Part shown: positions 48,704-52,414 of the stretch, piece by piece
Numbering within the stretch: position 1 is the first letter of the stretch
Layout of the letters: every line of letters starts with the position of its first letter
Origin: Escherichia coli
GTDB taxonomy: Bacteria > Pseudomonadota > Gammaproteobacteria > Enterobacterales > Enterobacteriaceae
Assembly: GCF_003334305.1 (NCBI RefSeq)
Contig: NZ_QOWS01000009.1
Strand: one strand, 5' to 3'
Length of the DNA: 64,000 bases
Position numbers and translations under genes: made by a program
Notes under the pieces: generated by a model
Told to the model about the DNA's origin: nothing
The model's database searches: none
What the model saw: the letters and a program-made list of their open reading frames with translations, nothing else

Positions 48704-50086
48704 ATGAAGAGTGAAGTGTTGTCCGTTAAAGAGAAAATTGGTTATGGCATGGGAGACGCCGCCAGCCACATTATTTTCGATAACGTAATGTTATATATGA
48801 TGTTCTTTTATACCGATATTTTTGGCATTCCTGCCGGTTTTGTCGGAACCATGTTTTTGGTCGCTCGTGCACTGGATGCGATTTCCGATCCTTGCATGGG
48901 GTTGTTGGCCGATCGAACGCGCTCTCGCTGGGGTAAATTTCGTCCGTGGGTACTGTTTGGCGCACTGCCATTCGGGATCGTCTGTGTACTGGCCTATAGC
49001 ACGCCAGATCTCAGTATGAACGGCAAAATGATCTATGCAGCAATTACTTACACCCTACTTACCTTACTTTATACCGTCGTCAATATCCCTTACTGCGCAT
49101 TGGGTGGTGTAATCACCAATGACCCGACTCAGCGTATCTCGCTGCAATCCTGGCGTTTTGTGCTGGCGACCGCGGGAGGCATGCTTTCTACTGTTCTGAT
49201 GATGCCACTGGTTAATTTAATTGGCGGTGATAATAAACCACTCGGTTTCCAGGGCGGTATCGCGGTCCTTTCCGTGGTGGCATTCATGATGCTGGCATTT
49301 TGTTTCTTCACCACTAAAGAACGCGTTGAAGCACCACCTACAACAACGTCTATGCGGGAAGATTTACGTGATATCTGGCAAAACGACCAGTGGCGGATTG
49401 TCGGTTTACTAACCATTTTCAATATCCTGGCGGTGTGCGTACGCGGTGGGGCGATGATGTATTACGTCACATGGATTTTGGGCACGCCGGAAGTGTTTGT
49501 CGCTTTTCTCACCACTTATTGCGTGGGTAACCTGATTGGTTCCGCACTGGCAAAACCTCTGACCGACTGGAAATGTAAAGTCACTATCTTCTGGTGGACG
49601 AACGCCCTGCTGGCAGTGATTAGCCTCGCGATGTTCTTTGTTCCCATGCAGGCCAGCATCACTATGTTTGTCTTCATCTTCGTGATTGGTGTGTTGCATC
49701 AACTGGTGACACCTATCCAGTGGGTAATGATGTCCGATACCGTCGACTACGGCGAGTGGTGCAATGGTAAACGCCTGACCGGGATCAGTTTTGCTGGCAC
49801 GCTGTTTGTGCTCAAACTGGGGTTGGCCTTCGGCGGCGCTCTTATCGGCTGGATGCTGGCTTATGGCGGATATGATGCGGCAGAAAAAGCGCAGAACAGC
49901 GCCACGATTAGCATCATTATTGCGCTATTCACGATTGTTCCGGCGATCTGTTATTTGCTGAGCGCGATTATCGCTAAACGCTACTACTCACTCACGACGC
50001 ACAATCTGAAAACCGTTATGGAACAGCTGGCTCAGGGTAAACGCCGTTGCCAGCAACAATTCACCTCTCAAGAAGTGCAGAACTAA
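48704..50086 (+). CDS. yicJ: GPH-family glycoside-pentoside-hexuronide:cation symporter YicJ
   Basis: Track ORF 48647..50086; start at MKSEVLSVKEKIGYGMGDAA to give 460 aa. Confidence 0.85.
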   Translation: MKSEVLSVKEKIGYGMGDAASHIIFDNVMLYMMFFYTDIFGIPAGFVGTMFLVARALDAISDPCMGLLADRTRSRWGKFRPWVLFGALPFGIVCVLAYSTPDLSMNGKMIYAAITYTLLTLLYTVVNIPYCALGGVITNDPTQRISLQSWRFVLATAGGMLSTVLMMPLVNLIGGDNKPLGFQGGIAVLSVVAFMMLAFCFFTTKERVEAPPTTTSMREDLRDIWQNDQWRIVGLLTIFNILAVCVRGGAMMYYVTWILGTPEVFVAFLTTYCVGNLIGSALAKPLTDWKCKVTIFWWTNALLAVISLAMFFVPMQASITMFVFIFVIGVLHQLVTPIQWVMMSDTVDYGEWCNGKRLTGISFAGTLFVLKLGLAFGGALIGWMLAYGGYDAAEKAQNSATISIIIALFTIVPAICYLLSAIIAKRYYSLTTHNLKTVMEQLAQGKRRCQQQFTSQEVQN

Positions 50087-50095
50087 GGAACGGCA

Positions 50096-52414
50096 ATGAA
50101 AATTAGCGATGGAAACTGGTTGATTCAACCTGGCCTCAATTTGATTCACCCGCTTCAGGTGTTCGAGGTTGAACAGCAGGATAATGAAATGGTGGTCTAT
50201 GCTGCCCCCCGTGATGTGCGTGAACGTACCTGGCAGCTTGATACGCCTTTATTTACGTTGCGCTTTTTCTCCCCACAGGAAGGTATTGTCGGTGTGCGGA
50301 TTGAGCATTTTCAGGGGGCGCTGAATAACGGTCCTCATTATCCGCTCAATATTTTGCAGGACGTGAAGGTCACAATCGAAAACACAGAACGTTATGCTGA
50401 GTTTAAAAGTGGCAACTTAAGCGCGCGTGTCAGCAAAGGTGAGTTCTGGTCACTGGATTTTCTGCGCAACGGCGAACGTATTACCGGTAGTCAGGTGAAA
50501 AATAATGGCTACGTGCAGGACACGAATAATCAACGCAATTATATGTTTGAGCGGCTTGATCTTGGCGTTGGCGAAACAGTTTACGGTCTGGGAGAGCGCT
50601 TTACTGCCCTGGTGCGCAATGGCCAGACGGTAGAGACCTGGAACCGGGACGGCGGCACAAGTACTGAACAGGCGTATAAAAATATCCCGTTCTACATGAC
50701 TAACCGTGGTTATGGGGTACTGGTCAATCATCCCCAGTGTGTCTCTTTTGAAGTGGGATCGGAGAAAGTCTCCAAAGTGCAGTTCAGCGTTGAGAGTGAA
50801 TATCTCGAATACTTTGTTATCGACGGCCCGACGCCGAAAGCGGTACTTGATCGTTATACCCGCTTTACTGGTCGTCCGGCGCTGCCGCCCGCGTGGTCCT
50901 TCGGCCTGTGGCTAACCACTTCATTTACCACCAACTACGACGAAGCGACGGTAAACAGCTTTATCGATGGTATGGCGGAACGCAATCTGCCGCTGCATGT
51001 TTTCCACTTTGACTGTTTCTGGATGAAAGCCTTCCAGTGGTGCGATTTTGAGTGGGACCCGCTGACTTTCCCTGACCCGGAAGGGATGATCCGCCGCCTG
51101 AAAGCGAAAGGGCTGAAAATCTGCGTCTGGATTAACCCCTATATCGGTCAAAAATCCCCCGTCTTTAAAGAGTTACAAGAGAAAGGCTATTTACTCAAAC
51201 GCCCCGACGGTTCGCTATGGCAGTGGGATAAATGGCAGCCAGGTCTGGCGATTTATGACTTTACCAATCCGGATGCCTGCAAATGGTACGCCGACAAACT
51301 GAAAGGTCTGGTCGCGATGGGCGTTGATTGCTTTAAGACCGACTTTGGCGAACGTATCCCAACTGATGTTCAGTGGTTTGACGGTTCCGATCCGCAGAAA
51401 ATGCATAACCATTATGCGTACATCTACAACGAACTGGTGTGGAACGTGCTCAAGGACACCGTTGGTGAGGAAGAAGCTGTCTTGTTTGCCCGCTCGGCCT
51501 CCGTCGGTGCGCAGAAATTCCCGGTACACTGGGGTGGCGATTGTTACGCTAACTACGAATCAATGGCGGAAAGCCTGCGCGGTGGTTTGTCTATTGGCCT
51601 TTCAGGTTTTGGCTTCTGGAGCCACGATATCGGCGGCTTTGAAAATACCGCTCCGGCGCACGTTTACAAACGCTGGTGCGCGTTTGGTTTGCTCTCCAGC
51701 CATAGCCGTTTACACGGTAGCAAATCTTATCGTGTGCCGTGGGCCTACGATGATGAGTCCTGTGATGTGGTGCGCTTCTTCACGCAACTGAAATGCCGCA
51801 TGATGCCGTATCTGTATCGTGAAGCTGCGCGTGCGAACGCGCGGGGTACGCCGATGATGCGGGCCATGATGATGGAGTTCCCGGACGATCCGGCTTGTGA
51901 TTACCTTGACCGTCAATACATGTTAGGCGACAACGTGATGGTTGCGCCGGTGTTCACTGAAGCGGGCGATGTGCAGTTCTACCTGCCGGAAGGTCGCTGG
52001 ACACACCTGTGGCACAACGATGAACTCGACGGTAGTCGCTGGCATAAACAGCAGCACGGCTTCCTGAGTCTGCCCGTTTATGTGCGTGATAACACTCTAC
52101 TGGCGCTGGGCAACAACGATCAACGTCCCGATTACGTGTGGCACGAAGGCACGGCATTCCACCTCTTTAATCTGCAAGACGGGCATGAAGCCGTCTGTGA
52201 AGTGCCCGCTACTGACGGATCGGTGATCTTTACTTTAAAAGCAGCACGTACTGGCAACACGATTACTGTGACTGGTGCGGGCGAGGCGAAGAACTGGACG
52301 CTGTGCCTGCGCAATGTTGTGAAAGTAAATGGTCTGCAAGACGGTTCGCAGGCTGAAAGTGAGCAGGGGCTGGTGGTGAAGCCTCAAGGGAATGCGCTGA
52401 CAATTACGTTGTAA
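50096..52414 (+). CDS. yicI: Alpha-xylosidase (GH31)
   Basis: 772-aa ORF, co-directional 9 bp after yicJ. Confidence 0.9.

Follow-up and report, generated by a model that had tools for sequence, protein, structure and literature searches.

The closest described relative of the locus analysed here is the yicJI operon of Escherichia coli K-12 (b3657-b3656), in which YicI is an alpha-D-xyloside xylohydrolase of solved structure (PDB 1WE5, 1XSI/J/K, 2F2H) and YicJ is a putative xyloside transporter. The name "yicJI metabolic operon" already appears in the literature on these genes, and alpha-xylosidase activity has been reported for an essentially identical protein (Okuyama 2004; Carneiro 2022, as given in a citing paper). 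YicI is reported to be active on isoprimeverose-type linkages and on non-galactosylated xyloglucan oligosaccharides; structure 2F2H is described with a pair of catalytic Asp residues, the D482A mutant has served as a thioglycoligase, and one study converts the enzyme into an alpha-glucosidase. Control of yicJI by XylR was predicted computationally in literature of 2001. The genes, the structure and activity of YicI, the operon name and the predicted regulator are all already published. Since the operon has been described and YicI characterised, the operon inference is not new, and the contribution made here is a conserved XylR-like site as a candidate answer to the question of how yicJI is regulated.

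In the Gram-positive Lactobacillus (Lactiplantibacillus) pentosus, the xylP-xylQ genes are under a repressor-type XylR, whereas the E. coli pair is apparently under an AraC-type activator. Likened by description, the two systems share a GPH-type carrier beside a GH31 alpha-xylosidase and control by the xylose regulon. The literature names XylP as the transporter for isoprimeverose and XylQ as a GH31 alpha-xylosidase of the same group as YicI and homologous to it. YicJ has the GPH fold family in common with MelB, the melibiose:cation symporter of Salmonella and E. coli (PDB 4M64, 7L17). The XylR-dependent promoters described are those of xylAB and xylFGHR, which have been footprinted (IA and IF sites), and those of xylE and yagGH, which are predicted. 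The published XylR consensus reads --gaAa-a-a-AAT, present twice, in an operator of about 37 bp that lies next to the -35 element.

The window (the whole 64-kb stretch of E. coli DNA that was analysed) contains the same locus as K-12. On the plus strand, yicJ (48704-50086, 460 aa, RefSeq start ATG at 48704) is followed by yicI (50096-52414, a 772-aa ORF) after a gap of exactly 9 bp (GGAACGGCA, 50087-50095, plus strand). The tRNA-Sec gene selC (48317-48411, minus strand; ARAGORN, and Rfam RF01852 with 83.8 bits) is divergent from yicJ, the start of which lies 292 bp away. These coordinates agree with the earlier note, which had placed a transporter gene and an alpha-xylosidase gene 9 bp apart beside selC. 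Both genes have an AAGGA Shine-Dalgarno sequence on the plus strand; that of yicJ (48692-48696) is conserved in an alignment of the yicJ upstream region from Enterobacterales (alignment A1), and that of yicI (50085-50089) overlaps the yicJ stop codon TAA (50084-50086). Between this contig and MG1655 there is 100% identity over the selC-yicJ spacer and over yicJ, the encoded protein is identical in sequence to K-12 b3657, and the neighbours are also those of K-12: setC, a yicT/rhuM pseudogene remnant and selC precede the pair, and convergent yicH, then xanP, follow it. In extraintestinal pathogenic strains such as BEN2908, the frz island lies between yicI and yicH; none is present here. Set against K-12 yicJI, the locus differs only by T706 for A706 in YicI, and selC carries no pathogenicity island. 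An alternative start of yicJ at ATG 48647 (479-aa ORF, 48647-50086, plus strand) was rejected, as it is without a Shine-Dalgarno sequence, overlaps the putative -10 element described below, and adds codons that are not conserved and that Citrobacter and Enterobacter interrupt with in-frame stops.

The locus is the native yicJI operon of E. coli, which is nearly universal in the species: 5395 of 5426 complete genomes have the pair. A YicJ ortholog occurs in 18 Enterobacterales loci, in every one of which yicJ stands immediately 5' of yicI, and 16 of the 18 also keep selC linked to the pair; selC is absent at two Rahnella loci (L013 and L021) and lies about 940 bp upstream in Hafnia (L014). A strict sigma-70 consensus promoter scan of 48250-52600 returned 0 sites, and a terminator scan found no terminator-like site in the 9-bp gap; inside the coding regions of the pair it gave 7 weak terminator-like matches, no excess over shuffled sequence (5.0 expected). 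The proposal of a two-gene operon is supported by the short gap, the lack of a consensus promoter in the scan, adjacency across genera and the published operon.

The product of yicI is a GH31 alpha-xylosidase. The protein is identical at 771 of 772 positions to the crystallised E. coli enzyme (PDB 1WE5, 1XSI, 2F2H), with T706 here for A706 in the PDB sequence as the sole difference. It contains three GH31 Pfam domains, a mutarotase-like N-terminal domain (PF13802, E 4.3e-28), a TIM barrel (PF01055, E 1.4e-96) and a C-terminal β-sandwich (PF21365, E 1.5e-23), and scores 1433.3 bits against the NCBIfam alpha-xylosidase equivalog NF007940 (cut-off 606). Loss of the GH31 catalytic residues was the observation that the earlier note had set against its own reading; the catalytic Asp pair is kept, D416 in KTDF and D482 in WGGD, and the reading survives. 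D416 is reportedly the catalytic nucleophile. C307 and F308, which are said to be elements of xylose specificity, are kept as well.

YicJ belongs to the GPH family (TC 2.A.2), as had been claimed, and is a predicted alpha-xyloside:cation symporter. The domain MFS_2 (PF13347) covers residues 13-428 (E 1.5e-90), and the scores against the NCBIfam equivalog NF008526 (1055.9 bits, cut-off 836) and the GPH model TIGR00792 (519.7 bits, cut-off 231) are both well above threshold. Its closest solved structure is MelB (E 1e-55, aligned over residues 6-446). The helix II residues R52, D55 and D59 of MelB are kept in YicJ as R55, D58 and D62. In contrast, D124 of helix IV is replaced by N127 and N58 by S61, and the sugar-site positions differ as well, with S21-H22 in place of K18-D19 and C131 in place of W128. 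Owing to the changes at D124, N58 and K18-D19, neither the cation coupling nor the sugar specificity of MelB can be transferred to YicJ. A literature search found no assay of transport by YicJ, isoprimeverose included, and no experiment on isoprimeverose transport by YicJ or on growth of E. coli on alpha-xylosides.

The pair is flanked by setC, the rhuM/yicT remnant, selC and yicH, and therefore no regulator gene adjoins it. The statement that there is no adjacent regulator is thus literally true of genes, but it is incomplete, because the DNA upstream of yicJ carries a conserved, putative XylR-type operator. In alignment A1, positions 48585-48683 are conserved and 48457-48584 are not; the part of the conserved block at 48585-48650 lies 54-119 bp upstream of yicJ and is shared by the 18 Enterobacterales loci. 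Within it are two XylR-type direct repeats on the plus strand (48598-48630), AAGAATCATAAAT at 48598-48610 and CAGATATCGGAAT at 48618-48630, which stand in a 21-bp register, both end in AAT and align without gaps with the xylF, xylE and yagG sites. The XylR operators and the yicJ site have this arrangement in common: two direct repeats in a 21-bp register, ending in AAT, beside weak -35 and -10 elements. The xylF repeats are less degenerate than those of E. coli yicJ, which have CATAAA in place of CGTAAT, and yicJ has a single site, whereas xylA and xylF each have a divergent partner operon to loop to.

A 51-column matrix was built from the K-12 xylF, xylE and yagG promoters, two of which (xylE and yagG) are predicted and not footprinted operators, and its best match in the 64-kb window is the site at 48585 (48585-48635), at 26.0 bits; the runner-up has 16.9, and 200 simulated windows gave no score as high. 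With a matrix restricted to the repeats (38 columns, without the GATCACA flank), the E. coli yicJ site falls to fifth in the window, at 14.4 bits against 17.3, and much of the 26.0-bit score therefore comes from the flank common to xylE and yagG. The full matrix finds a match 107-124 bp upstream of yicJ in all 18 loci, which are related by descent and so not independent, and ranks it first in 16 and second in 2. These loci include Rahnella, where selC is missing, and Hafnia, where selC is distant. Reciprocally, a matrix made only from the yicJ sites has its best match in the 9.5-kb K-12 xyl locus at the xylF operator and its next best at the xylA-side operator, and the xylE and yagG promoters are recovered with it as well. 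A conserved putative operator of the XylR type in the promoter region argues that yicJI is probably controlled in trans by XylR, the gene of which is about 100 kb away in K-12, and the operator may explain why no regulator gene adjoins the pair. No experimental demonstration of xylose induction of yicI or yicJ, or of XylR binding, was found in a literature search. The genes xylR-xylH-xylG-xylF/xylA, with 72-86% identity to those of K-12, come directly after yicI in Rahnella bruchi.

The conserved block opens with GATCACA (48585-48591), in which G-TCACA is invariant in 14 species. This box may represent the strong half-site for CRP, the candidate other half being CGCTA (48576-48580), which agrees with TGTGA at 2 of 5 positions; a full CRP site upstream of yicJ was sought and rejected, none being present at 2 mismatches or fewer. 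The yicJ upstream sequence GATCACAGAAAA recurs in the K-12 xylE promoter, and GTCACAAAAG occurs in that of yagG, in each case 17 nt before the first repeat. The promoters of yicJ, xylE and yagG have the GATCACA flank in common, whereas xylA/xylF lack it. Downstream of the repeats, TTTACAAAAT (48651-48660, plus strand) is conserved, with ATGGTTTACAA invariant or nearly so in A1, and its register after the second repeat is that of TAAAAAT in the xylF promoter. It is a possible -10 region of a XylR-dependent promoter.

Taken as a whole, yicJI is best read as an operon for alpha-xyloside uptake and hydrolysis, probably driven by XylR, a reading to which we give a probability of about 0.8. The analysis here supplies the identities of the genes, the catalytic residues of YicI, the geometry of the operon, the conservation of both the pair and its upstream DNA, and the likeness of that DNA to XylR operators; YicI activity and the operon name come from the literature. 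YicJ would import small alpha-xylosides, for example isoprimeverose (Xyl-alpha-1,6-Glc) or short xyloglucan oligosaccharides, which other gut or plant-associated organisms would release from xyloglucan. Cytoplasmic YicI, a retaining GH31 enzyme (nucleophile D416, acid/base D482), would then remove the non-reducing alpha-xylose, leaving xylose and glucose or a gluco-oligosaccharide. The two genes would be carried on one mRNA and translationally coupled, as the 9-bp gap and the Shine-Dalgarno sequence overlapping the stop codon suggest. Transcription is probably not constitutive, and would probably depend on xylose-bound, AraC-type XylR at 48598-48630, next to the -35 element, with CRP probably helping at the conserved GATCACA. 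Xylose, itself a product of YicI, would induce the operon. We infer the substrate of YicJ, the binding of XylR and CRP, induction by xylose and the position of the promoter.

An unlikely alternative is that yicJI is weakly expressed, either constitutively or as a cryptic operon silenced by H-NS, from a sigma-70 promoter in the yicJ-selC spacer and outside XylR control, the conserved block serving another factor or selC. In a genomic SELEX study, the yicJ/selC spacer is listed as bound by H-NS and as having a constitutive RpoD promoter, and the hexamers TTGTAA-19-TATAAT and TTATCA-18-TATAAA are given for it; the second of these was found here at 48501-48530 on the yicJ strand. The stretch of the spacer that holds these hexamers (A1 columns 46-200) is, however, poorly shared between genera, and they were therefore not adopted as the main promoter. 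The conserved block is closer to yicJ, travels with it in the Rahnella loci that lack selC, is still present in Hafnia and matches XylR operators reciprocally; the strict sigma-70 scan, which found no consensus promoter, gave what is expected of an activator-dependent one. A fitness effect of deleting yicJI has been reported for LB to which no xylose was added, which suggests some expression independent of XylR.

The other alternative concerns the substrate, and is also improbable. The pair might serve something other than xyloglucan-derived isoprimeverose, such as other alpha-xylosides (host or plant glycoconjugates with alpha-xylose) or transglycosylation products, and YicJ might carry an unrelated glycoside. 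Consistent with this, YicJ departs from MelB at the sugar-site positions given above, and close homologs of YicI outside Enterobacterales are partnered by ABC transporters, GH3 enzymes or dedicated AraC-type regulators and not by a GPH carrier, so that more than one uptake route can serve the enzyme. Against this alternative stand the activities reported for YicI on isoprimeverose-type linkages and xyloglucan oligosaccharides, the roles cited for XylP and XylQ in L. pentosus, and the XylR-type control, which fits a substrate that yields xylose.

With alpha-xyloside uptake under XylR retained as the preferred reading, a broader proposal can be put forward tentatively, at a little short of even odds. 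In it, yicJI would be a product-induced salvage module, dependent on XylR and CRP, for cross-feeding on isoprimeverose and small xyloglucan fragments left by primary degraders, and the invariant GATCACA box, placed 17 nt ahead of the first repeat as in xylE and yagG, would mark a distinct sub-class of promoters of XylR-controlled secondary transporters. Induction by xylose through XylR, together with isoprimeverose salvage, offers a testable answer to how yicJI is controlled and what it is used for. It bears on gut cross-feeding on dietary xyloglucan and on the engineering of E. coli for the use of hemicellulose fragments.

The remaining results concern the DNA around the two genes. An Rfam scan of 47600-52700 returned tRNA-Sec alone, with no riboswitch or leader, and RNAalifold predicted no conserved pairs on the alignment of the yicJ leader. 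The block adjoining selC (48412-48456, minus strand; columns 1-45 of A1) is nearly invariant and probably represents the promoter and leader of selC, including a minus-strand TATAAT at 48443-48448. Between the convergent yicI and yicH lies a GC-rich hairpin with an 11-bp stem (52428-52456), which probably terminates transcription in both directions; it has no T-tract, and for that reason the consensus terminator scan missed it. The fold of 52405-52475 has a free energy of -26.9 kcal/mol and a z of -3.95.

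The yicJ and yicI genes correspond to two ORFs on the same strand (48647-50086 and 50096-52414), and the tRNA-Sec gene selC, located by tRNA and Rfam searches, lies on the opposite strand at 48317-48411. The annotated ATG of yicJ (48704, +) is preceded by AAGGA. Its TAA stop codon (50084-50086) is followed by the 9 bp GGAACGGCA (50087-50095) and then by the yicI ATG (50096, +), whose Shine-Dalgarno sequence AAGGA overlaps the yicJ stop; yicI terminates at 52412-52414 (+). Read base by base, these junctions match those given in an earlier note, whose coordinates and 9-bp spacing are therefore exact. 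The observation of the pair is confirmed, and its interpretation as a transporter-enzyme operon is supported by the gene identities, the catalytic residues and the operon geometry. The feature is already known, including its predicted regulator: the “yicJI metabolic operon” is a published name, and papers citing the original study report a fitness phenotype upon deletion (Reperant et al., 2011). GC content is ordinary (yicJ 49%, yicI 52%, window 52%). A strong hairpin (52428-52456; -26.9 kcal/mol, z -3.95) folds 3′ of the yicI stop, just ahead of the end of the convergent yicH.

YicI carries three GH31 Pfam domains and scores above the NCBIfam alpha-xylosidase equivalog cut-off (1433 vs 606 bits). 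It is identical at 771 of 772 positions to the crystallised E. coli YicI (1WE5, 1XSI/J/K, 2F2H), the sole difference being T706 for A706. Because D416, D482, C307 and F308 are all present in this nearly identical protein, YicI does not lack the GH31 catalytic residues (D416 and D482), the defect that the earlier note had named as a refutation. The activity is known from the literature, where the citing passages describe YicI as an alpha-xylosidase acting on xyloglucan oligosaccharides (Okuyama 2004, 2006; Carneiro 2022) and D482A as its acid/base mutant.

YicJ matches MFS_2 (Pfam) over its full length, as well as the GPH model TIGR00792 and the YicJ equivalog NF008526. Among proteins of solved structure, the melibiose permease MelB is the closest to YicJ (E 1e-55); its R52, D55 and D59 are kept as R55, D58 and D62. 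By contrast, MelB D124 is replaced by N127 and the sugar-site pair K18-D19 by S21-H22; the coupling ion and the substrate therefore cannot be read from MelB. Orthologs with 77-93% identity occur across Enterobacteriaceae under generic names only.

When the spacers between selC and yicJ of 14 genera or species are aligned, two conserved blocks stand out. The selC-proximal block (48412-48456) is probably the selC promoter and leader, the middle (48457-48584) is not conserved, and the yicJ-proximal block (48585-48683) is strongly conserved, with the consensus GATCACAgAAAAcAAGAAtCGTAAtttGATAACcAGAAAtCGgAATA ... GATGGTTTACAA ... AACCGGTCTCAG. The latter contains two direct repeats in a 21-bp register (within 48598-48630), ending in AAT. 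The published operator of XylR, the AraC-type xylose activator, spans about 37 bp with two direct repeats (--gaAa-a-a-AAT twice) and adjoins weak -35/-10 elements. The conserved sequence TTTACAAAAT (48651-48660) is a putative -10 in register with the xylF promoter. A sigma-70 consensus scan of the region returned no promoter. A genomic SELEX study lists the spacer as bound by H-NS and as holding constitutive RpoD promoters, whose hexamers fall in the non-conserved zone. The element AACCGGTCTCAG (TATCGGTCTCAG in E. coli; 48672-48683) belongs to the presumed 5′ leader of yicJ; no RNA structure is predicted for it, and the xylF, xylE and yagG promoters show no visible counterpart. No conserved RNA structure is predicted for the leader, and tRNA-Sec is the only Rfam family found in the region.

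The K-12 upstream regions of xylA-xylF, xylE and yagG contain sites that can be aligned gap-free with the yicJ block. A 51-column matrix trained only on the xylF, xylE and yagG sites, of which the xylE and yagG operators are themselves predicted rather than footprinted, finds its best match in the window (both strands) at 48585 (+), where it scores 26.0 bits; the next-best hit reaches 16.9. This score is reached in 0/200 first-order Markov simulations of 64 kb and in 2/300 AT-rich 5-kb simulations. Across 18 Enterobacterales loci, the top match of the same matrix falls 107-124 bp upstream of yicJ in 16, and in the remaining two the match at this place ranks second. The set includes Rahnella (selC absent) and Hafnia (selC about 940 bp away); its sites, being orthologous, are non-independent observations. 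In the reverse test, a matrix derived solely from the 18 distinct yicJ sites gives its highest score in the 9.5-kb K-12 xyl locus to the xylF operator and its next highest to the xylA-side operator, and it places the xylE and yagG promoter sites each first in their own region. When restricted to the repeats (38 columns), the matrix ranks the E. coli yicJ site just fifth in the window; thus, the flank GATCACAnAAAA, which this site shares with xylE and yagG, accounts for much of the discrimination. XylR control of yicJI is a prior literature prediction, re-derived here from sequence comparison. The yicJ-derived matrix also detects a second XylR-like site in the K-12 xylE-malG spacer (L084:2927-2977, +; GAGCACGAAAGAGAATTATCGTAAGTGGGAAAACAAATAACGTAAAAATAA, 19.6 bits), in opposite orientation to the xylE promoter site and roughly 100 bp upstream of it, a pairing that recalls the IA/IF operators looped by XylR in the xylA-xylF region.

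In the mechanism proposed here, YicJ would import small alpha-xylosides, with isoprimeverose as the best candidate, and YicI would cleave them into xylose and glucose. The xylose would activate XylR, which in turn, probably assisted by CRP, would switch on yicJI along with xylAB, xylFGH and xylE; the outcome would be product induction under catabolite control. The GATCACA at the start of the yicJ-proximal block (48585-48591) could represent a strong CRP half-site; its partner half matches the CRP half-site at only 2/5 positions, and a search upstream of yicJ at up to two mismatches returned no CRP site. Among the papers that could be searched, none with experimental data on induction by xylose, binding of XylR, transport by YicJ or growth was found.

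Relatives of YicI were found at 80 loci when one genome per species was scanned. At 18 of these, all in Enterobacterales (Citrobacter, Enterobacter, Kluyvera, Leclercia, Pseudescherichia, Cedecea, Mangrovibacter, Rahnella, Hafnia and others), the gene for the YicI ortholog is immediately preceded by one for a YicJ ortholog. Of the 18, 16 have selC upstream: as the direct neighbour in 14, and at a distance of 800-950 bp in Kluyvera (L006) and Hafnia (L014). The roughly 60 non-Enterobacterales homologs (55-66% identity; Paenibacillus, other Bacillota, Burkholderiales, Chloroflexi, Armatimonadota and a few archaea) include none with a GPH partner within 7 kb, so the pairing is an Enterobacterales arrangement. 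The sole trace is a 55-residue fragment in Lucifera butyrica (L017:9426-9590), 49% identical to the YicJ C-terminus and directly 3′ of the GH31 gene, possibly a decayed GPH transporter gene. Outside Enterobacterales an adjacent regulator is common: at 26 of these loci a regulator of the AraC family is encoded divergently, some 137 bp upstream, and the remainder include loci with sugar ABC permeases, a histidine kinase and AraC-type response regulator, or a GH3 glycosidase. In Rahnella (L013:9432-16291, L021:11164-12288), yicJI lies away from selC and abuts a xylR-xylHGF/xylA cluster; just before yicJ there is a gene for a 357-aa protein with a signal peptide that resembles periplasmic sugar-binding proteins. 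R. bruchi has yicI directly followed by xylR-xylH-xylG-xylF and a divergent xylA (72-86% identical to K-12), and R. inusitata has xylR 1.8 kb downstream. A Pseudocitrobacter MAG (L004:6842-12630) encodes a YicI homolog (86% identical) without yicJ upstream; downstream of it are an ORF of 558 aa and a distantly related GPH-like transporter (31% identity over 146 aa), a gene order that differs from the sister species (L003).

The window approximates the reverse complement of roughly 3.82-3.88 Mb of K-12; yicJ and the spacer separating it from selC show 100% identity to MG1655. A 4.2-kb segment, annotated as tRNA-Sec, yicJ (GPH family transporter), yicI (alpha-xylosidase) and yicH, is present at ≥80% coverage in 5395/5426 complete E. 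coli genomes. The yicJI pair has selC, a rhuM/yicT pseudogene remnant and setC as neighbours to one side, and yicH, xanP and gltS to the other. The avian pathogenic strain BEN2908 is described as carrying a genomic region of about 7 kb, GR27 (“yicH..yicI”), at the yicI-yicH spot. In the window this site is empty, the two convergent genes being only 52 bp apart (52415-52466) with a single strong hairpin between them. GR27 is presumably the frz operon. Between setC and selC lies the degraded rhuM-family pseudogene (yicT in K-12; 48077-48238, -). Since intact RhuM-like genes (342-347 aa) occupy the same place beside selC in Enterobacter ENT03 (L005), Pseudescherichia (L008) and Hafnia (L014), the E. 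coli pseudogene seems to be what decay has left of such a gene at this tRNA integration hot spot. The stretch between setC and this remnant (47700-48000) is non-coding and very AT-rich.
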